Source: a virus
Strand: one strand, 5' to 3'
Length of the DNA: 26,263 nt
IMG/VR virus record: IMGVR_UViG_3300018080_000090
Location: 1 to 26,263 of that record
In this document: positions 1 to 26,263 of the stretch, piece after piece
Numbering within the stretch: position 1 is the stretch's first letter
Layout: the number at the start of each line of letters is the position of its first letter
The notes under the pieces: generated by a model
What the model was told of the DNA's origin: nothing
The model's database searches: none
What the model saw: only the letters and a program-made list of their open reading frames with translations
Made by a program: the position numbers and the translations under genes

Positions 1-123
1 GAAACAGCCTTGGGTATGGCTTATGTTCTTAAAACTCTTGAATTGATTAAGAAATTGAAACCAAAGTTTTTCTTTATAGAAAATCCAAGAGGAGTTTTAA
101 GAAAGATGGCTTTTATGGATGAA
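1..123. repeat. Terminal direct repeat (assembly overlap), identical to 26141..26263
   Basis: Base-by-base comparison: GAAACAGCCTTGGGTATGGC...GGCTTTTATGGATGAA is identical at both window ends over 123 nt. Confidence 0.95.
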
Positions 124-420
124 ATTTCAATTAGAAATACAGTAACCTATTGTCAATATGGAGATACAAGGATGAAGCCAACAGATATTTGGACTAATTG
201 CAGTTTTTGGAAACCGAAACCAATGTGCAAGAATGGAGATAGTTGTCACACTCCTGCACCAAGAGGATCAAAAACTGGAACTCAAGGTTTAAATGGAAGC
301 AAAGGTCGATCACGTGTTCCTGAAAAACTATGTTTAGAAATTTTAAAAAGCTGTGAGCAACTAATCGCAAATCCCTCTACTTTGCCTAACGGCAATCCTA
401 ACGGAGAGTTTAAAAAATGA
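1..420 (+). CDS. DNA (cytosine-5) methyltransferase, 3-prime part of the gene that starts at 25892 (wraps the circle)
   Basis: The frame is continuous with 25892..26263 once the 123-nt overlap is collapsed. Contains IENPRG (motif VI-like), TYCQYGDTRMKPTDIW (motif VIII-like) and RSRVPEKLCLEI (motif X-like). Joined length is about 222 aa. Confidence 0.9.
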   Translation, partial: ETALGMAYVLKTLELIKKLKPKFFFIENPRGVLRKMAFMDEISIRNTVTYCQYGDTRMKPTDIWTNCSFWKPKPMCKNGDSCHTPAPRGSKTGTQGLNGSKGRSRVPEKLCLEILKSCEQLIANPSTLPNGNPNGEFKK

Positions 421-569
421 TACCAAGATGTGAAGGATGTAAAATAGAACTTGAAATTTTAATTAGCGAAGAAAATAAAGACCTACACTTTGCAGGTTCA
501 GGGTTGTTTGAGAAAGGACACTTATTTCTAATCCTAGTTAATGATAAAGGGGAGGTAATTGTTGGATGA
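417..569 (+). CDS. Hypothetical small protein (50 aa, below the ORF-track cutoff)
   Basis: The ATG at 417 overlaps the MTase stop (ATGA). It reads MIPRCEGCKIELEILISEENKDLHFAGSGLFEKGHLFLILVNDKGEVIVG up to the TGA at 567-569. It fills the gap on the coding strand; the listed antisense ORF 410..607 is the less likely alternative. Confidence 0.4.
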   Translation: MIPRCEGCKIELEILISEENKDLHFAGSGLFEKGHLFLILVNDKGEVIVG

Positions 570-577
570 ACTAGAAG

Positions 578-778
578 ATGATAACCAAAAAAGACATAGC
601 TAGACAAAAGGCAAGAGAAATCTACTCAAAAGAGTTAAACAAGCTTGTAAATGAAACAAACCACTTAATAGAAAAGTATGTGAACGAAAAGATGACTAAA
701 TTTTATAACAAAGCTCTTAGAATCGCTGAAAAGAATGTTTTAGCATTTGAAGATATTTGTAGGGAAGATATAAAATGA
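578..778 (+). CDS. Hypothetical small helical protein (66 aa)
   Basis: ORF track. K/E-rich, coiled-coil-like sequence. Its stop overlaps the next ATG (ATGA at 775-778). Its 3-prime end lies inside copy 1 of the 53-bp repeat. Confidence 0.55.
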   Translation: MITKKDIARQKAREIYSKELNKLVNETNHLIEKYVNEKMTKFYNKALRIAEKNVLAFEDICREDIK

Positions 779-781
779 GTT
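729..781. repeat. 53-bp direct repeat, copy 1 (partner 1226..1278)
   Basis: AAAAGAATGTTTTAGCATTTGAAGATATTTGTAGGGAAGATATAAAATGAGTT is identical at both sites (offset 497 nt). Each copy contains two GAAGATAT sub-repeats 15 nt apart (749-756 and 764-771 in copy 1). Confidence 0.9.
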
Positions 782-1026
782 ATGAAGATGTATTTTTAAC
801 GATAGCATCTGGATTATTAATAATTATCATTATATCTTTTTCACTTCATTTAATCGGCATACAAATGCAAATAAATTTCTGCGATTATGATTCTTGTTCT
901 CAAGAAAGCGAATATTGGGAAATTAATGGTAGCAAATGTTTTGATGAAACTAACCCTGAGTGTAAAGACTTTTTACGATTATGGAATTATTGCCAACATT
1001 ATAAACAAAGGATTGGACAATGTTAA
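775..1026 (+). CDS. Small membrane protein with a Cys-rich C-terminal part (83 aa)
   Basis: ORF track. N-terminal hydrophobic helix (FLTIASGLLIIIIISFSLHLIG) followed by 6 Cys. Lies inside the repeat-bracketed cassette. Confidence 0.55.
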   Translation: MSYEDVFLTIASGLLIIIIISFSLHLIGIQMQINFCDYDSCSQESEYWEINGSKCFDETNPECKDFLRLWNYCQHYKQRIGQC

Positions 1027-1360: not shown

Positions 1361-2005
1361 ATGGGAGAAAATAATAACATGATTAAAGCACCTGCTAAAA
1401 TCACAATAGCAAAGTATAGAAGGGTTTCTACAGATAATCAGGAACTAACACTACAAGATGAAGTCCTGGAGAAACATATCCAAAGATTAAGAGAAGATAA
1501 TCCACTGAATAAATATGAGGTATTGGATTTCAAAGATTTCGCATTCTCTGGCAAGACTAAGGAAAGACCTGATTTTAAAAGGATGATGGAACAAGTGGAG
1601 AAGAAAAAGATTAATATAATAATTTTTACAAAACTGGATCGCCTGGCCAGAAGTTTACAAGACCTTCTAAATATCTCATCAATCCTGGAAGAAAATGGGG
1701 TTAAGTTTACCGTAGTTGAACAGAATATCGACACTTCTACATACCAAGGAAGATTAAACTTTCAGATAATGGGAGCTTTTGCAGAATTCGAAAGGAATAT
1801 TACTAGGGAAAGGATGGAACTTGGGAGGAAAAGGGCAGACATAACTGGGAGTAAATCTGGTAAACCTTGCCATAGGCCAAAAGTGGATATCGATAATGAT
1901 GGAGTTAGGTTTAAACATAAACAGGGTTGGAGTATGCACCAAATAGCTAAACACTATAATGTTTCAATAACACCGATTAGGAGAATTTTAAATAATGGGA
2001 ACTGA
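1361..2005 (+). CDS. Small serine recombinase (resolvase/invertase family) with C-terminal HTH
   Basis: YRRVSTDNQ (catalytic Ser motif), KLDRLARS and FAEFERNITRERMELGRKRA are the canonical resolvase catalytic-domain motifs. The C-terminal GWSMHQIAKHYNVSITPIRRIL looks like an HTH. At 214 aa it is resolvase-sized, not large-serine-integrase-sized. Confidence 0.9.
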   Translation: MGENNNMIKAPAKITIAKYRRVSTDNQELTLQDEVLEKHIQRLREDNPLNKYEVLDFKDFAFSGKTKERPDFKRMMEQVEKKKINIIIFTKLDRLARSLQDLLNISSILEENGVKFTVVEQNIDTSTYQGRLNFQIMGAFAEFERNITRERMELGRKRADITGSKSGKPCHRPKVDIDNDGVRFKHKQGWSMHQIAKHYNVSITPIRRILNNGN

Positions 2006-2379: not shown

Positions 2380-2430
2380 ACCTTAGTGCACAAAACAAAC
2401 ATTTAAATAGTTGTTATAATTATAACAACT
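2380..2430 (+). promoter_or_regulatory. Promoter with TATA box (TTTAAATA, 2402-2409) abutting a perfect 22-bp palindrome (AGTTGTTATAATTATAACAACT, 2409-2430)
   Basis: The TATA box is centred ~26 nt upstream of the ATG at 2432 (leaderless geometry). 25 nt of this element (2402-2426) recur in inverted orientation at 5528-5552. The upstream ACCTTAGTGCACAA recurs at 5583-5596. Confidence 0.6.
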
Positions 2431-2431
2431 A

Positions 2432-2581
2432 ATGGCTTTAACTCAAATCCTTTTCGATGAAAAAGAAGAGGGAATCATTCAAAGGTTTTCATTACTGTGG
2501 AAAAGTAATAAACCAAACACGATAAAGAAAATGGTTCAAGAGTTCGAGCAAATAGAAGAGGTAGAGGATGGGTCTGTTTGA
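2432..2581 (+). CDS. Putative ribbon-helix-helix (CopG/Arc-like) DNA-binding protein (49 aa)
   Basis: MALTQILFDEKEEGIIQRFSLLWKSNKPNTIKKMVQEF fits a beta-strand/helix/loop/helix pattern. It is the first gene after the palindromic operator. It is below the ORF-track cutoff and overlaps the next gene by 14 nt. Confidence 0.45.
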   Translation: MALTQILFDEKEEGIIQRFSLLWKSNKPNTIKKMVQEFEQIEEVEDGSV

Positions 2582-3326
2582 AGATTTAGGGATTCAGGGT
2601 ATGCCTAAGATTGAACTTGTAGGCATTTTTTCTTCCACTTGGACTTATATTATTATATTAGTTGTTGTGGGATTTTTACTTTTGGTGGCATTAGTGGTCA
2701 CATTATTTTTTATGACTTATAAAAAGAAAGTAGTTCTATTCGAAAATATTTCAGGGCAAGGATATGTTCCAGTAATCAAGACTAGAGCAAGAGTACTCAA
2801 TATTAAGAGGGGGGGAACTGACCAGGTATTAAAAACACTAGTGGGAGGATTATACCTTAATGCTTATGGGAAGAAGATGGGCAAAAACACTTTTTGGTTC
2901 GCAAAAGGTGAAGATGGATTTTTTTATAATTTTGTGTTAGGTGACCTTGATACAAAAAAAGCAATGCTCGATATAGAACCAATAAATAGAGATATAAGAG
3001 GATTCCAAACATTCGTCGATATGAGCACAATGGAAACTTATGGTAAGAGTTCAGTCGCCGCTCAGGTAATAATGTATACAACCGTGTTCTTATTTTTAGC
3101 ATTACTAGTTGGAGGTATGTGGATCCTTATTGGTAAGATGGGAGAATTAACTTCACCACTAGCTGGTTCAATAGAAAGGTCTGATGAGAACGCTATAAAA
3201 CTTCAGGAACAAACTCAAAAAACTGCACAGATGATGGAAGCCTTAATTAGAACAATGGGTTATGAGTTTGATAAGATTAAATTAAATGAGACCTCGCAAG
3301 GTGGCTTGGTACAGGCAAATGGATGA
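2568..3326 (+). CDS. Membrane protein, two TM segments (252 aa), function unknown
   Basis: ORF track. Hydrophobic segments TWTYIIILVVVGFLLLVALVVTLFF and VIMYTTVFLFLALLVGGMWILIG. ATGA overlap with the next ORF. Confidence 0.7.
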   Translation: MGLFEDLGIQGMPKIELVGIFSSTWTYIIILVVVGFLLLVALVVTLFFMTYKKKVVLFENISGQGYVPVIKTRARVLNIKRGGTDQVLKTLVGGLYLNAYGKKMGKNTFWFAKGEDGFFYNFVLGDLDTKKAMLDIEPINRDIRGFQTFVDMSTMETYGKSSVAAQVIMYTTVFLFLALLVGGMWILIGKMGELTSPLAGSIERSDENAIKLQEQTQKTAQMMEALIRTMGYEFDKIKLNETSQGGLVQANG

Positions 3327-3700
3327 TGAGAATTTACATAGAAGCAGTAATAATGATAATACTCTTCATCACATTTCTTCTTTGGGGAGCATGGTATATT
3401 ATCTCAACTAAATTATTATACAGGAAATATCAAAATGTTAAAACGAAAAAAGGAGGTTCCCAAGATTGCACCAGCACAACAACCAGCGGCGGCACCAGTA
3501 AAAGATTCTTCAGAGGATTTAAGAATCCTTTCAGAAGAAAACAATCAGTTGAAGGCGGCACTATCGACTTACGAAGAGATGAACAATTTGAAAGACGAGA
3601 GTTATTACCGACTGAAACTTTTGTCGATACTGGAAACGAAACTAGAAAGGATCGCAAACGCATTAGAGGAATCTTTAAACGAAGAAAGCGACGAAGCTGA
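3323..3700 (+). CDS. Hypothetical protein with N-terminal TM helix and very basic tail (125 aa); overlaps 3435..3734 in another frame
   Basis: ATGA-coupled to the upstream gene and has an N-terminal TM helix. The Arg/Lys-rich remainder could be a frame artefact of the acidic ORF in the +1 frame. Confidence 0.4.
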   Translation: MMRIYIEAVIMIILFITFLLWGAWYIISTKLLYRKYQNVKTKKGGSQDCTSTTTSGGTSKRFFRGFKNPFRRKQSVEGGTIDLRRDEQFERRELLPTETFVDTGNETRKDRKRIRGIFKRRKRRS

Positions 3701-3734
3701 AGACGGTTCCGACGATGAAACAACAGAAGAATAA
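3435..3734 (+). CDS. Acidic coiled-coil protein (99 aa)
   Basis: Natural-looking heptad-like sequence (EDLRILSEENNQLKAALSTYEEMNNLKDES...) with an acidic C-terminus. It overlaps 3323..3700 for ~265 nt. Confidence 0.5.
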   Translation: MLKRKKEVPKIAPAQQPAAAPVKDSSEDLRILSEENNQLKAALSTYEEMNNLKDESYYRLKLLSILETKLERIANALEESLNEESDEAEDGSDDETTEE

Positions 3735-3990
3735 ACATTTAATTATTCTCGACGTTGTTACATTGGTTGCTATCATCCTAATTATATTATCTTTTTTTTA
3801 TTTATTCTTTAACATTTATTCACCATACAAAAGTTGTAAGAACATCGACGGTGATTATAGTTTAACATTATCTTTAGAACATAAGTGCAATAATAAAAGT
3901 TATGTATTATATAGTGATGGCCATTGGGGTTTTGAGAATCAGTTTAACTTATCATATCTACTTAGCCTCCCATACGAGGAGCGAACATAA
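3715..3990 (+). CDS. Small membrane-anchored protein (91 aa)
   Basis: ORF track. N-terminal TM (LIILDVVTLVAIILIILSFFYLFF). Last gene before the convergent minus-strand module. Confidence 0.55.
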   Translation: MKQQKNKHLIILDVVTLVAIILIILSFFYLFFNIYSPYKSCKNIDGDYSLTLSLEHKCNNKSYVLYSDGHWGFENQFNLSYLLSLPYEERT

Positions 3991-4052: not shown

Positions 4053-5096
4053 TTAATCACTCGTTGTTTGTTCTTCTTTGCCATTGTATCCTTCATCTAA
4101 GTTTACCCTATTATCATATTCTACTAGTTCTGCCTCATCCACTACTATCTCCTTTTTTTTGTTACTCAAAGGTAGTTCTTTATTATAAACTTTCTCTTGA
4201 CTACCTTGAGTTTCGCCCACGTCTACCTTTATCCAATCAGATAGTGTTTGTTTTGATACACATAACAAACTTGAGAGTTCTTCGTAAGTCATTTTAGGGA
4301 ATTTCTCTTTTAATTTTCCAAAAACTTTGGATCCATAAGCCTTTCTGATTCCAACTCTATGTGTAGTCTCAGGGTTTGCCGCCTCTTGTTTCACCATATC
4401 TTCATACTTTTCTTTTCGGTATTGGACTTCATCAACACCATATCCATCTGGAAACTTACCATAAAAAGTTGGCTTCCATGCTTTGTAATTGTAAGTTCTT
4501 TTACCATTAATATATAAAGCACGTTTCGCAGGAAAATTATAATAGTAAAAATTACCACGTTCAAGTTTATCACTAAACCTTACATCGATTGCAAACAAAC
4601 TTCTTGAAACTGCGTAACCGATTGGTAATTGAAACCAATTAGGAATAATACAAATCATAAAAAGGTTCATCTGTCTGCACTTCCTAAAAAATTGTCTAAG
4701 TGTTACTCCAAGGTCACTCCAATATGTCGCATCCTCCCATTCATCTAGTACTATGCAAGAGTAACGACCTTTGCCACCATCATATAATTCATAAGACCTC
4801 TCAATTAAATCCTTTGGATTCCAAACAAGATTTCTAACACTGAATTCTAAGTTAAGATTATATTTTTTATTAATCATCTCAGTCCAGGCCTCGCCAATTT
4901 GTGTAGCAAGAACGCTTTTACCTGTACCAACTTCTAAAGTTGAAGAATAAATAATACCCATAAAAGTCATATCGTCACTAATCTTATTAGCAAGTAATCC
5001 TAAATTCTTATACAAGTAACCATCCATAAACTTACCTGGTGTAACTTGCCCTTTCCAACTTCCCATAGGATATTTATCTACACAGAATTTTACCAT
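4053..5096 (-). CDS. P-loop NTPase (Walker A/B) with C-terminal HTH-like segment
   Basis: Walker A LEVGTGKSVLATQ. Walker B CIVLDEWEDA. C-terminal MTYEELSSLLCVSKQTLSDWIK resembles an HTH, followed by an acidic tail. I cannot assign the family by eye. Confidence 0.85.
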   Translation of the reverse strand: MVKFCVDKYPMGSWKGQVTPGKFMDGYLYKNLGLLANKISDDMTFMGIIYSSTLEVGTGKSVLATQIGEAWTEMINKKYNLNLEFSVRNLVWNPKDLIERSYELYDGGKGRYSCIVLDEWEDATYWSDLGVTLRQFFRKCRQMNLFMICIIPNWFQLPIGYAVSRSLFAIDVRFSDKLERGNFYYYNFPAKRALYINGKRTYNYKAWKPTFYGKFPDGYGVDEVQYRKEKYEDMVKQEAANPETTHRVGIRKAYGSKVFGKLKEKFPKMTYEELSSLLCVSKQTLSDWIKVDVGETQGSQEKVYNKELPLSNKKKEIVVDEAELVEYDNRVNLDEGYNGKEEQTTSD

Positions 5097-5515
5097 TAAC
5101 TCATCTTCATACCTGACATTCCAAGGTCATCCTTTGGTGGCATAAAGTACTTCTTCTTTTGAAGTTCTATTTGTACATTTCTTAGACATATATCAAGTTT
5201 CTTATTTAATTCGAAAGAATAAGTAATCCTTTTCTTTGATGAACCCACGTTTGATTTATCAACAAAAGTAATCTCTAAAGGTTTTATATCTAATATGTTT
5301 TCATACTTTTCAATTACTGGTGCATCAAATATTAATGGTGTAGAATCTACATAAAACCTTTTTACTAATTCAATCTTAATTCTTTGTCTTTCTTCTGGAG
5401 GAAAGTCTAACCTTCCTTCAACATCTCTAATCATATCTAGTGTCCGCCTTAAACTCATAAGAGTTGCAATTGCCATATTGAACGGAGCACCAGTTTCATA
5501 AACGTCATCAGCCAT
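5096..5515 (-). CDS. Hypothetical protein (139 aa), first gene of the minus-strand ATPase module
   Basis: ORF track. Its stop overlaps the ATPase start by 1 nt. It lies directly downstream of the inverted copy of the TATA/palindrome promoter. Confidence 0.75.
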   Translation of the reverse strand: MADDVYETGAPFNMAIATLMSLRRTLDMIRDVEGRLDFPPEERQRIKIELVKRFYVDSTPLIFDAPVIEKYENILDIKPLEITFVDKSNVGSSKKRITYSFELNKKLDICLRNVQIELQKKKYFMPPKDDLGMSGMKMS

Positions 5516-5527: not shown

Positions 5528-5552
5528 GTTATAATTATAACAACTATTTAAA
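5528..5552 (-). promoter_or_regulatory. Minus-strand promoter: inverted copy of the 2402-2426 TATA-plus-operator element
   Basis: The reverse complement reads TTTAAATAGTTGTTATAATTATAAC, identical to 2402-2426. The palindromic core is GTTATAATTATAAC. The ATG at 5515 lies ~37 nt from the TATA start. Confidence 0.6.
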
Positions 5553-5582: not shown

Positions 5583-5638
5583 ACCTTAGTGAACAATAGT
5601 AAAACATATAAAGAATGAAGTACTGTTACAGTGTAACA
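5583..5638 (+). promoter_or_regulatory. Putative plus-strand promoter of the large membrane-protein operon, with a TGTTACAGTGTAACA palindrome
   Basis: ACCTTAGTGAACAA (5583-5596) and AAACATATAAA (5602-5612) mirror the 2380-2407 promoter. The palindrome at 5624-5638 shares its arms with 16781-16797. Confidence 0.45.
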
Positions 5639-5881
5639 AAGATGGTGAAGGTATTAGTGTTATTGCTTTTAGGAATCATTCTTCTAGGAGTTTCTATTAC
5701 AATTTATAATAATACACATGAAGTTTCCGTCGAGAAAACTATCGGAATGCCTGAATGGTGTAATGATTTTAATGGTGAAGATTTTCTTTTAACTGGTGGT
5801 AGTTCTAATCCTCAGACAATAGATGAAATAAAGTTTGAACTTGCACGTCTTAATTGGTTATGCTCGGGGGGTAATCGTTAA
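5615..5881 (+). CDS. Small secreted/membrane protein (88 aa); the start is more likely the ATG at 5642
   Basis: ORF track. Signal/TM segment VKVLVLLLLGIILLGVSITIY. The putative TATA at 5605-5613 is too close to 5615 but is well placed for 5642. Confidence 0.6.
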   Translation: MKYCYSVTKMVKVLVLLLLGIILLGVSITIYNNTHEVSVEKTIGMPEWCNDFNGEDFLLTGGSSNPQTIDEIKFELARLNWLCSGGNR

Positions 5882-5883: not shown

Positions 5884-8274
5884 ATGGCAGTAAGATTGGT
5901 TGAAGGCGGACTACAATCTTACGATCCAGGTCAACTTGGAAAAACTACTATTAAGAAAGGCACAACAACTCCAACAAGGAAAACGTCAAGTGGTTCTTCT
6001 TCTCGGACACAACCAACTCCAACCCCTGCACAAACTACAACTGTAACTCAAGTACAAACAGCTGAACAGGCACAAGCAGCAGCAGAACTTGCAGCAATAG
6101 AAAGACAGCGTGATATTATAGTAAGGTCTGGTGGTGCTGTTGGTCAAACAATAAGAGGCTACGATTATAAAACAAACCAACCATTACAAATCGATACAGT
6201 AAGGAAAGGTTCCAAATCTGTAACCCAAGTAAGGAACATTGAAACAGGTGAAGTAACATTAAAAGAGTATGGTGTGGGAAGGGTTGGTGGTACTCCAGAT
6301 ATAAGGCGAGGTGTAGGATTTAAAGTTGAAAGAAAACCAACCCAAGAAGTAACAATAACAACTCAAGAAGAAATTGAACAACCGATAACTCCTTTTGTAG
6401 CAAGACCACCATTTACATTAAAAGGTTCGATTGCACAAAGTGGCTATATCGGCGGAACTCTTGATTTCTTCTCTGGCAAGATTGGAAATTTATACAAAGG
6501 AACAACATCTCAAGCATTACAATTCTATTCTAAAGAAACGCCAACAGCTTTAAAAGTTGGAACACCAGAATTTGTCAAACAAATACCCAAAGCTGTTGTA
6601 CAAAACATTGATTTAGGTACAGCTACAAGAACAGTTCCTTATTTTATTCCAGGAGTAGGTAGTGTATTACTTGCCGGGGAAGGTATCGAAACTGTTAAGA
6701 TGTCACCAACACTTGGAGGTAAGGCATTGGGAGTTGTTCAAATTGGTTTAGGTTCAATCTCTGGAGCACAAGCATTTAAGAAAGTAAAAGCTATACGTCA
6801 AACACAATTAATAAAAGATATAAAATTGCAACAAGTTCTAGGTGGAAGAGTAAAAGGTGATAAGGCAGGTGTGGATGTTTTAGTCGGTTATTCAAGAACA
6901 CAGCCAACAAGACTTGATAGAACAATATTTAATATAAAACCTGTTGAATCAATATCAATAATCAAACAACCATACATCGTCGATAGTAAAGGTGTTCTTT
7001 TAATTGATGGTAGAGGAACATCTATTACTCAAATTAATAATAAGATTTATGCAAAGTCTGTAAGAACAACTGGTTATGCAAACCAGCTAGAGGCTACTTC
7101 AAGGATTGGAAGGGGTAGAGTTGTTAAGGAAGTTCAGGCACAGGCAGGTATTGGGAGGATAAATGTTCAAGAACTTGCACAATTAGAGGCAACAATTAAA
7201 GGTGGAAGAATTACAGGCTTTACAATACCTTCCACTGGTAAAATAAGTACACCATTTATTGGTATCAGTAAAGAACAAGGAAATATTATTGGCGTTTTAT
7301 CTGGCACCCCAACTAAGGCTAGAATTGGTAATGGTGTTACTAGAATTACTGGCGATGTGAGAAATGTTGGAGCAATAAAGGTATTCGATATGTCTAGCTT
7401 ATCTGAAAGTTTAAGAGGTGGTGTTACTACTGTTGTAAAGACTGGTGGTAAACCTAGTACACCATTCCAGGAAGCATTGGTAAAGCAGGTGACACAAACA
7501 ACATTACCAAAAGTTACAACGCCTGCAACTAGCTTAACTCAAACATTATCACCCGCTCCTGCAGCAGTTACTCAATCATTTAAACAACAACAATCAACTT
7601 ATTATGGGACAGGACAATATGAAAGAACACAAGGTAGTGGAACTTTAACTGTTCAGAAAACAAAACAGGAAACAAGTTTACTCCCTTCCACATCATTTAA
7701 TATTAAGAATTTACAGGTTCAATCTTTCCAACCAGCATTAGATACAAGAAGCAGAAATATAACAAGGCAAACAACTTCAACAGATTTAATAAGTGAAACA
7801 AGGTTGAGGCAATCCCCAGCAATATCCCAAACACCTACACAAAGTTCAGCATTAAAAACTCCACAATTACTAAAAACTTTTTTCCCTTCAACAGCATTTG
7901 TACCATCAACAAGGCCATCAATACAAGTAGCACCAAAACCTGTAGGAGGTTTCGCTTTCAAGTTTCCTAAATCTAAACAACCTAAAGCACCAAGAGTTGG
8001 AAGGTTTGGTGTACAGGTTCGAAGGTTTGGTAAGTTTAAAACTATAGGTTATGCACCAACATTAAAAGAAGCGTTCTCTATAGGTAAACAAAGAGTAACA
8101 CAAACACTTGGAGCAACGTTTAGAATACCAGGTGCAAGTGCTAGAGAGATTAAAGGGTTTAGAACCAAGAAAGAGAAAGGGCAAGTTCTTTACATCGAAC
8201 CAAGAGGAAGAAGATTGAAACGTGGTACAAAAGAAATTCCTGAAATAAATTTTTATCGAGGAATTAAGCGATGA
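5884..8274 (+). CDS. Large T/Q/G-rich soluble protein with a strongly basic C-terminal domain (796 aa); putative virion component
   Basis: ORF track. No TM segment. Low-complexity TSSGSSSRTQPTPTPAQTTT and TQ/PS-rich linkers. The C-terminal ~110 aa are rich in K/R (RVGRFGVQVRRFGKFKTIGY...RGRRLKRGTKE). Confidence 0.85.
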   Translation: MAVRLVEGGLQSYDPGQLGKTTIKKGTTTPTRKTSSGSSSRTQPTPTPAQTTTVTQVQTAEQAQAAAELAAIERQRDIIVRSGGAVGQTIRGYDYKTNQPLQIDTVRKGSKSVTQVRNIETGEVTLKEYGVGRVGGTPDIRRGVGFKVERKPTQEVTITTQEEIEQPITPFVARPPFTLKGSIAQSGYIGGTLDFFSGKIGNLYKGTTSQALQFYSKETPTALKVGTPEFVKQIPKAVVQNIDLGTATRTVPYFIPGVGSVLLAGEGIETVKMSPTLGGKALGVVQIGLGSISGAQAFKKVKAIRQTQLIKDIKLQQVLGGRVKGDKAGVDVLVGYSRTQPTRLDRTIFNIKPVESISIIKQPYIVDSKGVLLIDGRGTSITQINNKIYAKSVRTTGYANQLEATSRIGRGRVVKEVQAQAGIGRINVQELAQLEATIKGGRITGFTIPSTGKISTPFIGISKEQGNIIGVLSGTPTKARIGNGVTRITGDVRNVGAIKVFDMSSLSESLRGGVTTVVKTGGKPSTPFQEALVKQVTQTTLPKVTTPATSLTQTLSPAPAAVTQSFKQQQSTYYGTGQYERTQGSGTLTVQKTKQETSLLPSTSFNIKNLQVQSFQPALDTRSRNITRQTTSTDLISETRLRQSPAISQTPTQSSALKTPQLLKTFFPSTAFVPSTRPSIQVAPKPVGGFAFKFPKSKQPKAPRVGRFGVQVRRFGKFKTIGYAPTLKEAFSIGKQRVTQTLGATFRIPGASAREIKGFRTKKEKGQVLYIEPRGRRLKRGTKEIPEINFYRGIKR

Positions 8275-9080
8275 GTTCAGAACCATTTTATCCACCTTAC
8301 AATCAGATGAACGACCAAGCTATGATCAATAATCAACTTAACCAAGGTAACGCTGCTGCAGCACAAACAGCACAAATGCAATACCAGATGGAAGAGGTAG
8401 AAAAAAACCTTGCATCAGAACAACTTGATTGTGATAAACTAATAAACGAATTGTATCATAACCTTAAACAAGATATACTTAAACCTAACCTTGAAAAAGG
8501 AGGGATACTTGATTGGACACAACTCGCTGACCAAACAAAAAGGATACTGACTGACGAAGGTGTTGATAAGATAATGCAGATTATGAAGAATTATATTAAC
8601 AAAGAAACGTTATTATCTAACTTTGATGAAAATCAAATTAAAAGAAGAATGAAAGAATTTAGACTTGCTTTCTCTGGATTAGTTTTTATGAAGTATGAAA
8701 ATATATTTAGAACACCAACGATGAATGAATGCAGGGATATATTAAATGAAAGGATAAACCAACGAATAGAGAAAGAGAAAATGAGGGCAGAGTTATTTCA
8801 TAGAGATTTGGATATTAAAAGTATAGTTGATAAAGTTTTAAATGAGGCAGAGAAACAGTTTGATTATGAGCTTGATAAGATTAAGAGTGTTAAGACTTCT
8901 GAGAATTTAAGAGAATTTGTGATGATGTTCACACACCTAAGCCACTTAGTAGAATCAATACACAACCGAGCATGGAAGGGTGAAGAAAGAGGTAGCCTGA
9001 GAAGACACTTTAATATTAATGAGGTCATAGGTGGCCAATCTAGAGAACAGCCACGCAAGAAAAGGTGGGGGATATTTTAA
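8271..9080 (+). CDS. Hypothetical helical soluble protein (269 aa)
   Basis: ORF track. ATGA overlap with the upstream gene. No motif recognisable by eye. Confidence 0.8.
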   Translation: MSSEPFYPPYNQMNDQAMINNQLNQGNAAAAQTAQMQYQMEEVEKNLASEQLDCDKLINELYHNLKQDILKPNLEKGGILDWTQLADQTKRILTDEGVDKIMQIMKNYINKETLLSNFDENQIKRRMKEFRLAFSGLVFMKYENIFRTPTMNECRDILNERINQRIEKEKMRAELFHRDLDIKSIVDKVLNEAEKQFDYELDKIKSVKTSENLREFVMMFTHLSHLVESIHNRAWKGEERGSLRRHFNINEVIGGQSREQPRKKRWGIF

Positions 9081-9893
9081 ATGAAAAGATTATTATTAAT
9101 TCTGGTTTTGGTATTAGTAATAACATTATCAACTGCACAACCACCACTAACAACAGTACTAGTATTTCCTGAAGGGTACAATTTTGCAGAGATTAATTAC
9201 CAGGAAATTAAGGTTGGAGAAAATTTCACATATTTCTTTTATCTATTCAATTCAAGCACAGGATTAAAAATAGATAATGAAACAGTTAATTGTACATTCT
9301 ATATGACAGATAGTAAAGGTAATATTTTAATTAATGCTGCAGAAGTTTATCAACCCAATGGGTACTGGTACACAAACATTAGTGGAGATTTAATTGATGA
9401 GATTGGGTACTATTATTATGGAGTAGATTGTTCAAACGGATATGGAGGAGCATTGTCTGGGGTGTTTGAAGTTACATATACTGGTAGAGGAATTACCGAA
9501 GCACAATCAATATTATATTCAGTATTACTTGCAATAATGGTTTTATCATTCTTCTTAATATTTATTGGTATGAGTTACTTGCCACAATCGAACCACACAG
9601 ACGAACAAGGAAGACTGCTTCAAATAAGTTACCTTAAATATTTTAGAGTACCATTATGGATTTTTGCTTATTTCTTATTTGCAGGAATTTTGTTCATCTC
9701 GAGCAATATTGCTTTCGCATACTTAAACGAAGTGATGTTCGGTAAAACACTCTTTATGTTATTCACATTACTTATGGTGGTTTCACCGATAGTAATAATA
9801 CTATTAGTAATTAGTTTCTTTATCCAGTTCTTCCACGATAAAGAATTTCAAAGGTTACTTAACAGAGGCATAATGCCTGGAGGAGAATTATGA
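9081..9893 (+). CDS. Secreted glyco-type ectodomain protein with a multi-TM C-terminal half (270 aa)
   Basis: Signal-like N-terminus (LLLILVLVLVITLSTAQ). Several N-x-S/T sequons (NFT, NSS, NET, NCT, NIS). Four or more hydrophobic helices after residue ~145. GGTGGGGG SD upstream. Confidence 0.8.
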   Translation: MKRLLLILVLVLVITLSTAQPPLTTVLVFPEGYNFAEINYQEIKVGENFTYFFYLFNSSTGLKIDNETVNCTFYMTDSKGNILINAAEVYQPNGYWYTNISGDLIDEIGYYYYGVDCSNGYGGALSGVFEVTYTGRGITEAQSILYSVLLAIMVLSFFLIFIGMSYLPQSNHTDEQGRLLQISYLKYFRVPLWIFAYFLFAGILFISSNIAFAYLNEVMFGKTLFMLFTLLMVVSPIVIILLVISFFIQFFHDKEFQRLLNRGIMPGGEL

Positions 9894-16873: not shown

Positions 16874-17188
16874 ATGGAGAATAAGAGAGGACAGATGACT
16901 GGTGGATTAATTACTAGTCTAGTTTTTGGTGTTGCTTCTTTGGTAATCGGTGTCATAATCGCATTCGTTATTGTTTCTACACTAACAGGTGCTAACCTTT
17001 TGACAGCTGATGGTGCTGAGGATAACGCTACTGACAGACTTGCAGGAAACTTTACAACAGGTATTGATAATGTTTCTGGAAAAATACCAACAGTTTTACT
17101 GGTTGCTGCAATCGTTCTAATCCTTGGAGTTCTTGTGTTACTAGTTACACAGTGGCAAAGAATGAGGTTAGGCGGAGGCGGTATTTAA
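16874..17188 (+). CDS. Small two-TM hairpin protein (104 aa) with a class III signal-like N-terminus; candidate major virion (capsid) protein
   Basis: MENKRGQ followed by a ~28-aa hydrophobic helix, a polar loop with sequons (NAT, NFT, NVS), a second hydrophobic helix and a GGGG tail. It has its own TATA promoter, the best SD in the genome, and a T-tract plus hairpin terminator. Confidence 0.8.
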   Translation: MENKRGQMTGGLITSLVFGVASLVIGVIIAFVIVSTLTGANLLTADGAEDNATDRLAGNFTTGIDNVSGKIPTVLLVAAIVLILGVLVLLVTQWQRMRLGGGGI

Positions 17189-18919: not shown

Positions 18920-20260
18920 ATGGAAAAGAAACAACAAACAACAAAAGAAGAGGCAGAGTTTCATAAATGGGTGGGAGTAATCGAAAGAACTCCCAGTTAT
19001 TTTAGAACAAAGGCAGATTTAAAAGTTAATGGAGTACCAAAAGAATTATGGGATAAGTTGTCAGAGGTCTGTGAACCTGTAAAAGAAGCGTTACATCAAA
19101 ATCCTACTCCAAGAGAAGCATTTAGACTGATTAAAGATATTATTGATTATTATTTAGATATGCCTGAGGATAAGAAAACTATTATCGCATTATGGATAAT
19201 TGGAACTTACCTACATGATAGGTTTGAATCATTCCCTTACTTATTCTTAAACGCTATGAGGGGAAGTGGTAAAACTAGAACACTTAAACTTATTACTGCA
19301 CTGGCAAAAGATGGTCAAATGCTAATGAGTTTGACTGAAGCTGGACTTTTTAGGACTTCTGGAACACTTGGGATTGATGAATTCGAGTCCTTAGGAAGTA
19401 AGGAAAAGCAGCCACTTAGAGAAATGCTTAACGCTTCATACAAAAAAGGCATAAAAATTGTGAGAATGAAGAAAAAAAAGACCATAGAAGGTGAAAATCA
19501 GGAAGCAGAATACTTTGAACCTTACCGCCCAATAGCTATGGCAAACATCTGGGGAATTGAAGAAGTATTAGGAGATAGGTCAATTTCTATCGTTTTAGAG
19601 AAATCTAATAATCCTATGTACACTAAAATCATGGATAATTTTGAGAACGATTCTGCCATTTTTACGTGTAAAAAAGCCATTTTTGACAGTTTAGTGTACA
19701 TAGTGAATGAACATACCGCTGGAAAACATATACATACACTAGCCAAATGGAACACATTTGTGAAAAACCTATGTTCATTACATACACTAAGTACATATAG
19801 TACATATAATACACTATATACACCAACTGCTGAAGAAGAAGAATTGTTCCAAGCAATTTGTGATACTGAAGTAGATGGAAGAAATTTAGAACTATATTTC
19901 CCATTATTTATTATTGCTAACCATATTGGGAAAGATATTTTACTTGAATCATTAGAAATTGCAAAGAGTAATATTCAAGCAAAAAAATTAGATGATATTA
20001 TTGAAAGTAAAGATATTACCGTTTACACTTTAGTTGCAGGATTAACAGAGGGTTCATACCATAGTATAAAGGATATTACTAATACAATGTTATTACTTGT
20101 TGGAGATAATATGGAAAATAGACAATGGTTAAACCCAAAGTGGATGGGTTCAGCACTTAAGAGATTAAACCTTATAATTGATAAAAGAAGAATGGGTAAT
20201 GGCATTGAAGTAACCTTAAACATAAAAAAAGCACAAGAAAAGATGGAGATGTTCAAATGA
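18920..20260 (+). CDS. Walker A/B P-loop ATPase, putative replication protein (resembles the DUF3631-type domain of phage/plasmid primase-helicases)
   Basis: Walker A MRGSGKTRTLK. Walker B LGIDEFESL. Then MLNASYKKGIKIVRM, and later PIAMANIWGIEEVLGDRSISIVLEK. From memory this order and spacing matches the DUF3631 pattern (LNAGhrrG...R...P.a.Agi...pdtl.DRsi.i). No primase or polymerase motifs are seen in the N-terminal part. Confidence 0.85.
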   Translation: MEKKQQTTKEEAEFHKWVGVIERTPSYFRTKADLKVNGVPKELWDKLSEVCEPVKEALHQNPTPREAFRLIKDIIDYYLDMPEDKKTIIALWIIGTYLHDRFESFPYLFLNAMRGSGKTRTLKLITALAKDGQMLMSLTEAGLFRTSGTLGIDEFESLGSKEKQPLREMLNASYKKGIKIVRMKKKKTIEGENQEAEYFEPYRPIAMANIWGIEEVLGDRSISIVLEKSNNPMYTKIMDNFENDSAIFTCKKAIFDSLVYIVNEHTAGKHIHTLAKWNTFVKNLCSLHTLSTYSTYNTLYTPTAEEEELFQAICDTEVDGRNLELYFPLFIIANHIGKDILLESLEIAKSNIQAKKLDDIIESKDITVYTLVAGLTEGSYHSIKDITNTMLLLVGDNMENRQWLNPKWMGSALKRLNLIIDKRRMGNGIEVTLNIKKAQEKMEMFK

Positions 20261-22587: not shown

Positions 22588-23121
22588 ATGAAACTAAATA
22601 TTGGATGTGGTAATGATTACAGGAAAGGATATATTAATATCGATAACTCTGAATTAGTTAAACCTGATTACATTGTGAACCTTGAAGAATGCAAACTCCC
22701 ATTCCAATCTAACACTTTTGATGAGATAATTTGTAACCATGTTTTAGAACATATAAATAATTTCATCCCTTTAGTAAAAGAAATGCACCGAGTGAGTCAG
22801 AAAGGTTCTAAAATCCTAATAAGATGCCCTTTCTATGCCGCATGGGGACAATACAACGACCCAACTCATGTAAGATTCTTTTCATTATACACTTTTGATT
22901 ATTTTAATCCTTCTTCTTATTCACACGAATGTGGGATACACGAAGCAGGAGAACCAATGTTTAACATAAAAGTAAAATTAAACTATGGAGTAGGCAAGAT
23001 GAAAAAATTTAATTGGATAATGAACCAAATAATCAACCTATATAAAGATTTTTATGTACGCTTCCTAGCTTTTATAATCCCTTGTGTTGAGATAAGATAC
23101 GAGTTGGAGGTGTTAAAATGA
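22588..23121 (+). CDS. Class I SAM-dependent methyltransferase (Methyltransf_11-like)
   Basis: Motif I KLNIGCGND. YINIDN. FDEIICNHVLEHI (post-I/II pattern typical of type-11 MTases). No DPPY/NPPY motif, so the substrate is unclear. Confidence 0.8.
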   Translation: MKLNIGCGNDYRKGYINIDNSELVKPDYIVNLEECKLPFQSNTFDEIICNHVLEHINNFIPLVKEMHRVSQKGSKILIRCPFYAAWGQYNDPTHVRFFSLYTFDYFNPSSYSHECGIHEAGEPMFNIKVKLNYGVGKMKKFNWIMNQIINLYKDFYVRFLAFIIPCVEIRYELEVLK

Positions 23122-24143: not shown

Positions 24144-24649
24144 ACGACGAAACAATTGAAAATAATGTCTTTCAAACAATATGGAAGGAACAAGAAGACA
24201 AAAGGGCATATAGAAGTGAGTGGGAGAGATTTTTAATAAACAAAGGTTACGAGCAAGGCAAGTCAGATGCTATAAAATTGATTAAAAAATGTTATGAAAC
24301 TGCCCCTTGGGATGAAGAAACTATTAAAGAAATAATTGAAATCCTCACCTCACAACCTCAAAGTCAGCAACCCGAAGTATTAGCCTGTCAGGGCGAGGGG
24401 GAAACAATTGCTGGGTCGCTCCCAGATAGTAAATCTGTGCTTGATACCTCGGTTGAGACCACAGAAGTTGAAGATGTTGGCAAGTCTTCACGAAACCCCT
24501 CTGCTGACACTCAAACTCCCTTATCCTCTTGCGATGATGTCGTTGAAGAAAGGGAGAGCCTTCGGGCTAAAGGATTTGAAGATTGGAATGGTTATAATGT
24601 TAAAGATTATAGGAATAAAACTAAACAAGGAGCAGAAGATGTCGCATAA
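24140..24649 (+). CDS. Hypothetical protein with an acidic, low-complexity C-terminal half (169 aa)
   Basis: ORF track with ATGA overlap. The second half is noticeably more GC-rich than the genome average. Confidence 0.65.
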   Translation: MNDETIENNVFQTIWKEQEDKRAYRSEWERFLINKGYEQGKSDAIKLIKKCYETAPWDEETIKEIIEILTSQPQSQQPEVLACQGEGETIAGSLPDSKSVLDTSVETTEVEDVGKSSRNPSADTQTPLSSCDDVVEERESLRAKGFEDWNGYNVKDYRNKTKQGAEDVA

Positions 24650-24797
24650 TGTCTTATATTTGGATGTTCTACGCCAAAATGTCGTATCTCTCTATATTCA
24701 CCAAAATTTTCTCTTTGCCCTCCAAAGTCGGGTTCAATCCTCACACTCAATTAAAATGCTTCCCTTAACAGAAGTTAAAGGAAATTTAAAAATATAA
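24639..24797 (+). CDS. Hypothetical mini-protein (52 aa); this is the 3-prime portion of track ORF 24408..24797
   Basis: AAGGAG SD (24627-24632) 6 nt upstream of the ATG at 24639. The longer track ORF has a non-ATG start and overlaps 24140..24649 out of frame. Confidence 0.3.
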   Translation: MSHNVLYLDVLRQNVVSLYIHQNFLFALQSRVQSSHSIKMLPLTEVKGNLKI

Positions 24798-24798
24798 A

Positions 24799-25134
24799 AT
24801 GCAAAGTCACCAACTAAACGCCATTTATACGGAGAGACCATCTATAAAAGTTGCAACTTCCCAAATTTGTTCCGATTTGGTTTTAGGTAAGTCTGGGAGC
24901 ATTGTTGGTGACCCCTCTTTCATAAACACTGCAGTGGAGAGGGTTATATTTTCAAACTACACATTTCAAAGTGTATGGGACAAAGGAAAAACTCAAACCC
25001 CGTTGCACTCTCGCTTCGCTCGGGTCAGTGAATGTCTGGTTAGTAGTTCGTCGTTGCACTTCCTCACCCGAATTGGCTTCGCCAACTCTACTAAACTAAA
25101 TATTAAACCTAATCAGAAGGAGTTGCTCCAATGA
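24799..25134 (+). CDS. Hypothetical protein (111 aa) of atypical composition; coding status uncertain
   Basis: ORF track. ATGA-coupled to the downstream MTase. It is S-rich and K/E-poor and lies in a GC-rich island, unlike the other genes here. Confidence 0.35.
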   Translation: MQSHQLNAIYTERPSIKVATSQICSDLVLGKSGSIVGDPSFINTAVERVIFSNYTFQSVWDKGKTQTPLHSRFARVSECLVSSSSLHFLTRIGFANSTKLNIKPNQKELLQ

Positions 25135-25895
25135 CTAAATTCAGAATACTAATCGCTTGTGAAGAAAGCCAGGAAGTTTGTAAAGCATTTAGGGAGTTAG
25201 GACACGAAGCATATTCTTGCGATATTTTACCTTGTAGTGGAGGTCATCCTGAATGGCACATACAAGGAGATGTTCTCCCTATTTTAGAACAAGAGTGGGA
25301 TATGGTTATTGCACATCCACCATGCACCTATTTATCTACTGCAGGAATAAGGTGGTTTAATATTGAGAGGTATGGAGATAAGGCAAGAGAAAGATATAAA
25401 TTAAGAGATGAAGCATTGGAGTTTTTCCTCAAAATATATAACTCAAAATGTAAATTTATAGCTGTAGAAAATCCAAGAGGTTTTGTAAGTTCTATGTTTA
25501 GAAAACCAGACCAAATAATCCAACCTTGGCAATTTGGAGATTCATTCAATAAACCAACTTGCCTATGGTTAAAAGGATTGCCAAAGTTAAAGCATACAAA
25601 AATTGTAGATAAAGGAGAAATGGTTACACATATAACAAAAAAAGGAAAGAAAAAAACAGATAGTAAATGGTATTATGAAGCATTTAGTTTGCCTCCAAAA
25701 GAAAGAGCAAAATTCAGGAGTAAAACATTTCTAGGAATAGCACAAGCGATGGCTAAACAATGGTCAGAATATCTTGAGCAACAATCGGTGGCTGACTTTA
25801 CTTCGGCTACGCCTACACCCAAAGATGCTTCGCATCCTTCTCATCACCCTAATATTAAATCCAATAGAGGGATTTGCTCCCAGCGATTAAAATGA
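25131..25895 (+). CDS. C5-cytosine DNA methyltransferase-like protein (variant motif I)
   Basis: ILIACEESQEVCKAF (variant N-terminal motif). HPPCTYLS (motif IV PC dipeptide). VENPRGF (motif VI). QPWQFGDSFNKPTCLWLKGLP (motif VIII-like). RSKTFLGIAQAMAKQW (motif X-like). SD AGAAGGAG at 25116-25123. Confidence 0.85.
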   Translation: MTKFRILIACEESQEVCKAFRELGHEAYSCDILPCSGGHPEWHIQGDVLPILEQEWDMVIAHPPCTYLSTAGIRWFNIERYGDKARERYKLRDEALEFFLKIYNSKCKFIAVENPRGFVSSMFRKPDQIIQPWQFGDSFNKPTCLWLKGLPKLKHTKIVDKGEMVTHITKKGKKKTDSKWYYEAFSLPPKERAKFRSKTFLGIAQAMAKQWSEYLEQQSVADFTSATPTPKDASHPSHHPNIKSNRGICSQRLK

Positions 25896-26263
25896 AGATA
25901 CTTGAACTTTTTTCAGGAACAGAAAGCTTTTCTAATGTAGCAAGAGCAAGAGGACATCAAGTTTTTACAATAGAAAATAATTCAGACTTTAATCCAAGTC
26001 TTTGTAAAAACATTCTTGATGTCACAATTAAAGATATTCCATTTAAACCTGATGTAATCTGGGCTTCTCCTCCTTGCACTTGTTTTAGTGTTGCGTCAAT
26101 AGGTTCAAGTTGGTGTGGTAATTATCATCCAAAAAGAACAGAAACAGCCTTGGGTATGGCTTATGTTCTTAAAACTCTTGAATTGATTAAGAAATTGAAA
26201 CCAAAGTTTTTCTTTATAGAAAATCCAAGAGGAGTTTTAAGAAAGATGGCTTTTATGGATGAA
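25892..26263 (+). CDS. DNA (cytosine-5) methyltransferase, 5-prime part (continues at window position 124..420 after collapsing the overlap)
   Basis: Its ATG overlaps the upstream stop (ATGA at 25892-25895). Motif I ILELFSGTESFS. Motif IV ASPPCTCFS. Motif VI FIENPRG lies in the repeated segment. Confidence 0.9.
   Translation, partial: MKILELFSGTESFSNVARARGHQVFTIENNSDFNPSLCKNILDVTIKDIPFKPDVIWASPPCTCFSVASIGSSWCGNYHPKRTETALGMAYVLKTLELIKKLKPKFFFIENPRGVLRKMAFMDE
26141..26263. repeat. Terminal direct repeat (assembly overlap), identical to 1..123
   Basis: Same comparison as for 1..123. Confidence 0.95.

Follow-up and report, generated by a model that had tools for sequence, protein, structure and literature searches.

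Spindle-shaped viruses are specific to archaea and have been argued to be ancient, and the described viruses closest to the element considered here are His1 (Halspiviridae), SSV1 (Fuselloviridae), the Wyrdviridae of Asgard archaea, PAV1, and the nanohaloarchaeal pair DNSV-1 and DNSV-2. The last two have genomes of 20.8-22.1 kb that encode an AAA+ ATPase, two paralogous hairpin major capsid proteins (MCPs) and an adhesin of more than 1,900 codons; they have a DPANN host, and most of their genes cannot be annotated (bioRxiv 10.1101/2025.02.15.638363). Here we analyse IMG/VR virus record IMGVR_UViG_3300018080_000090, positions 1 to 26,263, and refer to this whole 26,263-nucleotide (nt) stretch as the window. 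Judging from its sequence, the window is likely to be the complete circular double-stranded DNA (dsDNA) genome of an uncultivated archaeal virus, one that belongs to a large and apparently undescribed family whose morphogenetic module follows the spindle-virus plan of His1, SSV and the wyrdviruses; we put the probability of this reading, taken jointly, at about 0.65. The spindle-like features found here are a signature ATPase, a small hydrophobic protein of hairpin type (one copy or two), a giant putative adhesin, a membrane-protein block, a variable replication module and many zinc-finger mini-proteins.

The window resembles His1 in having a homologous ATPase with a C-terminal helix-turn-helix (HTH), an ATPase operon divergent from the structural operon, a small two-helix capsid-type protein with a glycosylation sequon in its loop, many CxxC mini-proteins and a large anchored adhesin-like protein. 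The genome of His1, however, is a linear molecule of 14.5 kb that ends in inverted terminal repeats and encodes a protein-primed DNA polymerase (PolB), whereas the window is circular at 26.1 kb with no polymerase found; DNA_pol_B_2 has no match in it, whereas His1-like loci carry one. The two ATPases share no similarity at the level of BLAST or HMMER, and the capsid candidate has no His1_capsid match. SSV1 offers its own set of parallels: a circular dsDNA genome, an ATPase (B251) that stands in one PHROG with His1 ORF16 (phrog_5484), a hydrophobic two-helix MCP cut after K-G, glycosylated structural proteins, a large terminal adhesin (VP4/C792) and, according to its annotation, leaderless transcripts from TATA promoters. 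Unlike SSV1, the window has a capsid candidate that leaves the VP1 and VP3 families unmatched, save for one weak phrog_5402 match by a single one of 30 scanned family members, and it has a serine recombinase and no SSV-type tyrosine integrase (no Phage_integrase domain was found).

The published layout of the Wyrdviridae, compared by description, fits the window point by point, but wyrdvirus genomes are at most 20 kb and their MCPs are His1-like, which the MCP candidate here is not. DNSV-1 and DNSV-2 are alike, by description only, in their plan of ATPase, hairpin MCP and giant adhesin, and unlike in their hypersaline habitat and tyrosine integrase. PAV1 (Pyrococcus abyssi virus 1), a circular spindle-shaped virus of 18 kb, is comparable in that one block of its genome is rich in membrane proteins and that it encodes a P-loop protein and two lectin proteins of ConA/LamG type, but it has no sequence similarity to the window in any protein. 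As for the Pleolipoviridae, which are marked by a VP4-like spike and a VP3-like membrane protein, the large proteins of the window match methyltransferases, DUF2341 and two sub-threshold non-virion families, in a library whose pleolipovirus families were not established. Of the characters that mark these families, the window has the spindle-virus ATPase and lacks those of the Halspiviridae (linear genome with protein-primed polymerase, His1_capsid) and of the Fuselloviridae (VP1/VP3, SSV integrase). On sequence we rate it as a new lineage of family level or higher, although of a known general kind, the spindle-type plan. The initial annotation had proposed a new lineage of spindle-shaped or pleomorphic type, or a virus-derived plasmid, and the homology of the ATPase, the divergent operons, the tiny two-helix protein, the protein in the adhesin slot and the promoters all support that proposal.

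The ATPase and its operon

The features of this region are as follows, with protein lengths in amino acids (aa).

4053..5096, minus strand: P-loop ATPase with C-terminal HTH, Walker A GTGKS and Walker B LDEWED; homologue of His1 ORF16 and SSV1 B251
5096..5515, minus strand: 139-aa conserved partner, first gene of the ATPase operon, adjoining the ATPase in relatives too; no family match
5528..5552, minus strand: twin promoter/operator of the ATPase operon, a perfect 25-nt inverted repeat with 2402-2426
2402..2426, plus strand: promoter/operator of the 2432-3990 operon, TTTAAATA then palindrome GTTATAATTATAAC
2432..3990, plus strand: four-gene operon (49, 252, 125 and 91 aa), three of the proteins with transmembrane (TM) segments; the 252-aa membrane protein (2568-3326) belongs to the conserved core

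In profile-profile comparison with hhalign, the window ATPase family matches an alignment of the His1 ORF16 family, made of 120 collected homologues, at 96.3% (E 1.9e-9) over 236 co-linear columns (23-295 against 27-303), and in this best alignment Walker A, Walker B and the HTH are all in register. With the HTH removed, the match stands at 94.6% (E 6.8e-8, 125 columns). Reversed His1 templates gave 0.2-0.3% (E 0.2-0.3, 10-27 columns), and either family set against another P-loop protein, the 446-aa protein of the window or PAV1 ORF375, reached at most 8% (E 0.004-0.75, 15-38 columns). For scale, the His1 family scores 77.5% against the single SSV1 B251 sequence (E 1.9e-5, 139 columns); the window family differs from SSV1 in reaching only 31% against that same sequence (E 5e-4, 63 columns). 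At the level of sequence profiles, these comparisons show the window ATPase to be homologous to the ATPase of His1 (ORF16) and SSV1 (B251), one of the two signature proteins of spindle-shaped viruses. Homologues in the His1 ORF16 family carry the labels Methanohalobium and Promethearchaeia.

Less sensitive searches see only the HTH. This is the case for single-sequence methods against His1 and SSV1, for Pfam and PHROG scans of 26 members of the ATPase family, and for a profile search of PDB sequences, and hmmsearch against the open reading frames (ORFs) of His1 and SSV1 was not significant (E 0.046). The absence of a recognisable packaging gene thus holds for ordinary searches with hidden Markov models (HMMs) only, because profile-profile comparison links this protein to the spindle-virus ATPase.

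Gene arrangement follows the same pattern. In His1 and three His1-like elements, the His1_capsid/MCP block is divergent from two to three small genes followed by the ATPase, and the GenBank record of His1 ORF16 annotates a C-terminal helix-turn-helix and places the gene on the strand opposite to the capsid block. In the window, as in these elements, the ATPase operon and a long operon for membrane and secreted proteins are read in divergent directions; the 139-aa partner gives no signal against the genes upstream of His1-type ATPases. The distance is nonetheless large. One of the three His1-like elements, from a metagenome-assembled genome (MAG) of Promethearchaeia (Asgard) and the one available proxy for the Wyrdviridae, encodes beside a His1_capsid gene an ATPase 48% identical to His1 ORF16, whereas the window ATPase is about 17% identical to it in the profile alignment and is visible profile to profile only. 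By this proxy the window is too distant to be a wyrdvirus, and the far greater distance of its ATPase means that the genome is neither a halspivirus nor a close wyrdvirus relative.

The 25-nt TTTAAATAGTTGTTATAATTATAAC forms a perfect inverted repeat (2402-2426 and 5528-5552), with an ATG shortly after either copy (2432 on the plus strand, 5515 on the minus strand), so the 2432-3990 and ATPase operons converge from identical promoters. In both, the 14-nt palindrome GTTATAATTATAAC sits between TATA box and start codon. One relative, L054, has equivalent twin promoters built on another shared sequence of about 35 nt (about 9490-9530 and 12908-12945), and most other relatives have a TATA box and an AT-rich palindrome before the ATPase operon. 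We read the twin TTTAAATAGTTGTTATAATTATAAC sites as a putative shared operator. In the window and in L054 alike, the twin promoters are identical within a genome and different between genomes. This pattern suggests either co-evolution with a regulator or gene conversion between the copies. The 25-nt inverted repeat was also considered as an invertible segment beside the serine recombinase gene, and this was rejected, both arms being inward-pointing promoters; inversion is unlikely because no relative departs from the common gene order and orientation, and because the twin promoters of L054 come without a recombinase match.

The candidate capsid protein and the structural block

The best candidate for a virion subunit lies at the end of the long plus-strand block and has its own promoter.

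16783..16809, plus strand: palindrome GTTACAATGTAAC then TATTTAAATA, the own promoter of the capsid-candidate gene, with GAAAGGAGGT downstream
16874..17188, plus strand: 104-aa candidate MCP; its variable N-terminus leads to a [KR]G|Q motif, and a loop bearing NAT/NFT sequons joins its two long hydrophobic helices

On its sequence, we regard the 104-aa protein as a candidate MCP that would be a functional analogue of the His1 and SSV capsid proteins rather than a proven homologue. Its gene is the most conserved of the family, with 708 homologues, the best 120 of which are all at least 76% identical, compared with 48-76% identity over the best 120 matches of the ATPase; an exhaustive HMMER search yields 334 representatives of 50%-identity clusters. 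In the family alignment, a variable N-terminal stretch ends in a near-invariant [KR][KR]G, which is followed by a hydrophobic helix, a loop with conserved NAT/NFT sequons, a second hydrophobic helix with the motif KIPTVLLVAAIVLILGVL inside it, and a basic tail. Sequons are enriched in the window protein (z 3.1 against shuffles). Fold prediction, which covered this protein and the ATPase among the core proteins, gives an AlphaFold2 (AF2) model in which residues 5-46 and 52-99 each form a long helix.

The sequence at [KR]G|Q agrees with the pattern of archaeal prepilin-peptidase sites. The SSV1 VP1 precursor is cut after K-G immediately before its first hydrophobic helix, and by analogy the two sites look equivalent. 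Many members of the family are about 190 aa long, because of a sequon-rich insert in the loop, as against about 105 aa for the short form. Some relatives have short and long paralogues in tandem, for example L097 (10001-10916), whereas the window has the short form only. Two MCPs are also found in fuselloviruses, wyrdviruses and nanohaloarchaeal spindle viruses (bioRxiv 10.1101/2021.07.29.453957; 10.1101/2025.02.15.638363).

Expression signals of the gene include a TATA box of its own (16802), preceded by a palindrome, a leader with the strong ribosome-binding site GAAAGGAGGT, and T-runs past the stop; its homologue in L097 has a related upstream element and an identical ribosome-binding site. 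The palindrome is of a second type, GTTACA(N)TGTAAC, which stands upstream of the capsid-gene TATA box (16783-16795) and at the start of the structural operon (5625-5637), and a palindrome or repeat of this type also occurs in the upstream regions of L017, L030, L018, L016 and L097. It is probably the binding site of a second regulator. Matches to known families are weak: among 30 scanned members, five match phrog_16261 'virion structural protein' (best E 1e-3), four match T4SS_pilin, and one matches phrog_5402, the SSV1 VP3 family (E 0.03). The window protein itself matches neither phrog_11172 nor phrog_5402 (VP1/VP3), and a tblastn search of phage records with both forms of the protein, short and long, brought no useful match.

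The rest of the structural block precedes this gene.

5615..5881, plus strand: 88-aa membrane protein whose gene opens the long structural operon
5884..8274, plus strand: 796-aa very basic protein (isoelectric point 10.5), T/Q/G-rich, no TM segment, conserved C-terminus
8271..9080, plus strand: 269-aa soluble core protein, helix-rich by eye
9081..9893, plus strand: 270-aa core protein with signal peptide, sequon-rich ectodomain and four further TM segments
9890..10371, plus strand: two small soluble proteins, 77 aa (basic) and 84 aa (zinc-finger-like, weak zf-PARP match)
10368..10940, plus strand: 190-aa polytopic core membrane protein with KRG-hydrophobic N-terminus
10937..16000, plus strand: 1,687-aa putative receptor-binding adhesin with signal peptide, DUF2341 (PF10102, 1.6e-17), 70 sequons and three C-terminal TM segments
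16000..16781, plus strand: two conserved small membrane proteins, 144 and 121 aa

The 1,687-aa protein contains 70 N-x-S/T sequons against 32.9 +/- 4.9 in shuffles of its own composition (z 7.6), and its sequons are selected rather than a by-product of composition. The 270-aa exported protein is also enriched (z 3.6), and the tested proteins without a TM segment are not. Relatives' counterparts of the 1,687-aa protein contain Laminin_G_3, and by analogy the protein fits an N-glycosylated, membrane-anchored adhesin like SSV1 VP4 or the nanohaloarchaeal adhesin of more than 1,900 codons. The 796-aa protein may be a DNA-binding or internal virion protein. The description of 5615-17188 as an 11.5-kb block of almost exclusively TM or secreted proteins dense in sequons is right in part, and needs amending for the four proteins (796, 269, 77 and 84 aa) that have no TM segment.

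An HMM of the 144-aa protein (16000-16434), which has TM segments at both ends, weakly matches His1 ORF23 (L011 7862-8308, 148 aa, same topology; E 0.005 in a set of 289 ORFs), and the match could reflect either a second gene in common or an artefact of TM composition.

The circular genome, its gene content and its relatives

The features that close the genome, and those that standard annotation or motifs identify, are listed here.

1..123, no strand assigned: terminal direct repeat, left copy, an exact match to the right copy; the overlap closes the circle
26141..26263, no strand assigned: terminal direct repeat, right copy, an exact match to the left copy
25892..26263, plus strand: C5 cytosine DNA methyltransferase, N-terminal part, continuing at 124 past the junction (PF00145, 1.2e-9)
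1..420, plus strand: C5 cytosine DNA methyltransferase, C-terminal part, with an open frame through the junction and a stop at 418-420
25131..25895, plus strand: second DNA methyltransferase with PPC and ENPRG motifs (phrog_757, 1.9e-67)
22588..23121, plus strand: S-adenosylmethionine (SAM)-dependent methyltransferase (PF08241, 5e-9)
1361..2005, plus strand: small serine recombinase, catalytic domain and C-terminal HTH (Pfam Resolvase, 4.8e-37; NCBIfam serine-recombinase models)
18920..20260, plus strand: 446-aa P-loop protein with GSGKTR and IDEFE; homologues in L003 and L071

Positions 1-123 are identical to 26141-26263 over all 123 nt, which gives a unit of 26,140 bp with a GC content of 33.8%. 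When the ends are joined, a frame stays open from the ATG at 25892 through the junction to the stop at 418-420, and the resulting 222-aa protein has its FSG, PPC and ENPRG motifs in order and matches Pfam DNA_methylase. The sequence comparison and the PF00145 match confirm what the initial annotation had said of a closed unit with a C5-methyltransferase gene reading through the junction. Direct terminal repeats were also seen in the two relatives available as whole contigs, L054 (19,259 bp, 112-nt repeat, core genes as in the window) and L006 (11,616 bp, 55-nt repeat), so this kind of circle recurs in independent assemblies. The genes are indeed tightly packed, nearly all on one strand and linked by ATGA overlaps (n = 14, with a coding fraction of 93%), but the proposed count of about 60 was too high: we find 46 credible genes, 43 of them on the plus strand, and at most about 53 when very small ORFs are counted.

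Three repeats within the genome may be recorded here. Shortly before the serine recombinase gene, a 57-nt direct repeat (729-785 and 1226-1282, 98% identical, 497 nt apart) flanks two small genes (775-1247); it could be a duplication or a small inserted cassette. A 27-nt tandem repeat at 23887-24021 (4-5 copies) encodes a 9-aa repeat, MFGSSQVRE, in a 218-aa protein (23487-24143). The two adjacent C5-methyltransferase-like genes form a tandem paralogue pair, and repeat D7 lies in their PPC/ENPRG regions (76% over 38 nt).

Pfam, PHROGs and NCBIfam recognise only the serine recombinase, two C5-type DNA methyltransferases, the SAM methyltransferase and the DUF2341 domain. The 446-aa P-loop protein has no family match in Pfam and NCBIfam scans and may be a replication protein. 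Among proteins of at least 104 aa, these libraries gave no match to an HK97 or jelly-roll capsid, a portal, a large terminase or an FtsK/A32-type packaging ATPase, and no window protein matched a DNA polymerase, Rep or tyrosine integrase. The claim that none of these hallmark genes can be found therefore stands for standard HMMs; it had overlooked the serine recombinase, and the ATPase is a remote spindle-virus homologue. Neither tRNA genes nor Rfam families were found in the window.

Homologues of the ATPase number 415 at E <= 1e-3, on contigs of up to 38.5 kb, many of the longer ones being 19-30 kb. About 170 of the relatives are in JGI metagenome contigs, none longer than 30 kb, and judging by sample names the family is abundant in sediment, groundwater and lake metagenomes. 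SRR6963352 and JGI 3300033148/9 are among the samples with relatives. IMG/VR holds four loci only, and megablast and tblastn found no match in 50,697 phage records and 72,556 plasmids. We found no description of the family in the literature, of which our coverage was incomplete. Across the fetched loci there is a conserved co-linear core, with the 252-aa protein (2568-3326), the ATPase and its 139-aa partner, and, on the other strand from the ATPase, the 796-aa protein (C-terminus), the 269-, 270- and 190-aa proteins, the giant LamG/DUF2341 protein, the two small membrane proteins and the 104-aa protein. Outside the core, gene content differs between relatives: this part includes the P-loop protein of replication type, the methyltransferases, the recombinases and numerous mini-proteins, in place of which some relatives carry a DUF5906 primase-helicase, glycosyltransferases, short tyrosine integrases, radical-SAM enzymes or an insertion sequence (IS) element. 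DDE transposases (IS240-like) lie in the variable regions of L097 (14339-15223) and L098 (7190-7924), so insertion sequences move in the family. L006 (CAZQXW010000056.1, 1-11616, from a Thermoplasmatales bin) encodes a homologue of the ATPase (55% identical) along with a protein of 1,271 aa and a serine recombinase; neither the capsid-candidate gene nor any other core gene was found in it, and it may be a satellite or plasmid relative, by analogy with pSSVx and the SRCE elements.

Host and alternative readings

In the upstream regions of the ATPase operon from 52 non-redundant relatives, an exact TTTAWAWA starts between -45 and -22 in 27, with a mode at -37 to -29, and Shine-Dalgarno (SD)-like sites and near-TTGACA sites occur in eight of the 52 each. 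In the window, genes that come first in an operon have an TTTAAATA-type box 30-37 nt upstream of the ATG and no SD site, and internal genes have GGAGG sites. TATA-like boxes had been proposed upstream of at least five ATGs. Strict TTTAWAWA/YTTAWATA boxes do begin 30-37 nt upstream of the ATGs at 1361 (at -36, before the serine recombinase gene), 2432 and 5515 (minus strand), and those before 21173 and 22353 are a looser match. Nine of the 22 strict boxes in the genome are intergenic, which is an enrichment in a class that makes up 8.8% of the sequence, and two more lie within methyltransferase coding sequence. These conserved TATA boxes with leaderless starts, together with the selected sequons and the [KR]G motifs, point to an archaeal host, as far as sequence can tell. 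The low-GC archaeal host of the initial annotation agrees with the GC content, with TATA boxes about 30 nt upstream of leaderless starts and kept in relatives, and with the sequons; the suggestion that it might be a DPANN archaeon such as a Pacearchaeota is a weak one. The largest contig among the metagenome relatives is 38.5 kb, so none offers host flanks. In L071, ARAGORN reports a tRNA-Gly(TCC) at 9467-9542 inside a mid-genome ORF; it is either a virus-borne tRNA or a false positive, and is uninformative for the host.

A number of results weigh against our reading. The relatives found in a GTDB scan were binned with Pacearchaeota, Thermoplasmatales, 'Bacterium' and Bacteroidales MAGs, one each; these four bins conflict in taxonomy, and the relatives in them are short contigs or whole-contig elements. 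No integrated copy was seen among the metagenome relatives. The AT-rich palindromes contain TATAAT, and single promoters can be read as bacterial, site by site. The AF2 model of the ATPase is of modest quality (predicted local distance difference test, pLDDT, 66), and Foldseek of this model against PDB and BFVD found generic P-loop folds only (best E 1.7e-3). When HMMs for 12 families of the core block, for the ATPase partner and for the 446-aa protein (14 in all) were run against the ORFs of His1, SSV1, PAV1 and three His1-like loci, the only matches were weak ones that probably reflect TM composition, and the 139-, 252-, 269-, 270-, 190-, 796- and 1,687-aa proteins have no convincing match in His1, SSV1 or PAV1. 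For the 104-aa family, hhalign runs that included shuffled and reversed controls detected no relation to the single sequences of His1 VP21, SSV1 VP1 or SSV1 VP3, and a four-sequence VP21 profile reached 3%. Pfam His1_capsid (PF25665) has no match to the window protein at E up to 1 and is absent among the 25 most-matched families listed for the 30 scanned members. A PDB profile search and Foldseek found nothing, and the model of the protein is of moderate confidence (pLDDT 68). With no homology or Foldseek match and a moderate model, the label 'capsid protein' therefore rests on architecture, conservation and expression signals.

It is conceivable, if unlikely, that the same virus family makes a particle other than a spindle, either a pleolipovirus-like vesicle or a filament of pilin-like subunits, with the 104-aa protein as an envelope or pilin-like protein. 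The 104-aa protein has no sequence homology to spindle capsid proteins, its N-terminus resembles an archaeal class III (prepilin) signal, the T4SS_pilin matches of four members would be in keeping with this, and many further membrane proteins are encoded in the window. The ATPase, however, is specifically related to that of spindle-shaped viruses, a two-helix hairpin with a C-terminal hydrophobic helix differs from pilin architecture, and no type IV pilus ATPase or platform protein was found, Pfam and PHROG matches being limited to the recombinase, methyltransferases and DUF2341.

We think it decidedly improbable that the window is an archaeal plasmid or other non-viral mobile element that carries a virus-derived ATPase and a surface-protein operon and that perhaps travels in vesicles or depends on a true virus as its satellite. 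Satellite plasmids, pSSVx and the SRCE elements among them, are known to carry the spindle-virus ATPase (bioRxiv 10.1101/2025.02.15.638363), Pfam and PHROGs find no canonical capsid fold in the window, and the 11.6-kb circular L006 keeps the ATPase and serine recombinase while missing other core genes. Against this, relatives with 34-67% protein identity retain a co-linear block of about ten core genes, to which the giant adhesin and the extremely conserved small protein belong; most of the longer contigs fall in a narrow size range of about 19-38 kb; and the 104-aa gene has the expression signals of an abundant structural protein.

That the circle is an assembly artefact, the molecule being linear with terminal redundancy or a piece of a larger genome, is very unlikely. 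The circularity of the window is supported by the end overlap only, but the junction rebuilds a complete methyltransferase gene with every motif in order, relatives from other assemblies have a similar overlap, and the full core gene set occurs once. Neither a protein-primed polymerase nor inverted terminal repeats were found in the window, whose ends form a direct repeat.

A bacterial host (for example ultra-small Patescibacteria or Bacteroidales), with the element as a non-tailed phage or plasmid, is very improbable: two of the four genome bins with a relative are labelled bacterial, palindromes downstream of A/T boxes hold TGnTATAAT-like strings and scattered sigma-70-like sites are slightly above chance (103 against 85.6 +/- 7.5 in shuffles), but the conserved upstream element is TTTAWATA at about -30 from SD-less starts and not TTGACA, intrinsic terminators are at chance level in the window (7 against 8 +/- 3), N-x-S/T sequons are selected in exported proteins only, the prepilin-like motifs follow the archaeal [KR]G form and lack the G|F-T-L-I-E of bacteria, and the nearest known relatives of the ATPase are archaeal-virus ATPases, a family with homologues labelled Methanohalobium and Promethearchaeia.

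If the window is a spindle-type archaeal virus, its morphogenesis might proceed as follows. The 104-aa protein would be produced abundantly from its own promoter and strong ribosome-binding site, trimmed at [KR]G|Q much like SSV1 VP1 after KG, possibly by a host prepilin-type peptidase, N-glycosylated in its loop, inserted into the host membrane and assembled into a capsid lattice. The ATPase could bind viral DNA via its HTH and drive assembly or extrusion at the membrane, with no lysis, while the basic 796-aa protein would condense or accompany the DNA and the 1,687-aa glycoprotein, held by its C-terminal TM anchor, would serve as the receptor-binding adhesin. The identical promoters would let one regulator switch the 2432-3990 and ATPase operons together, the serine recombinase may act in multimer resolution or integration, and the three methyltransferases may protect the DNA from restriction.

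With each new deep branch of the spindle-shaped viruses it can be asked again whether ATPase and hairpin capsid protein have stayed together throughout their history, and here the ATPase is conserved while the capsid candidate comes from a separate, very large family. Abundance in metagenomes, set beside four IMG/VR loci and none in annotated phage or plasmid collections, marks the family as a blind spot of virus-detection tools. The window, as a compact and complete reference genome in which promoters are defined and candidate genes for capsid and adhesin are named, gives targets for CRISPR-based host assignment, proteomics and microscopy, and viruses of DPANN archaea, the possible hosts, are barely known. 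It is a speculative and rather unlikely extension of our reading that the capsid family is unrelated to the His1 and SSV MCPs, that its prepilin-type [KR]G|Q signal is matured by a host type IV prepilin peptidase, and that its viruses are globally distributed among DPANN archaea. If this were true, archaeal virions assembled at the membrane would have a separate, pilin-like way of forming that works together with the ancient ATPase of spindle viruses, in a family which infects DPANN archaea worldwide and which present detection pipelines overlook almost completely.

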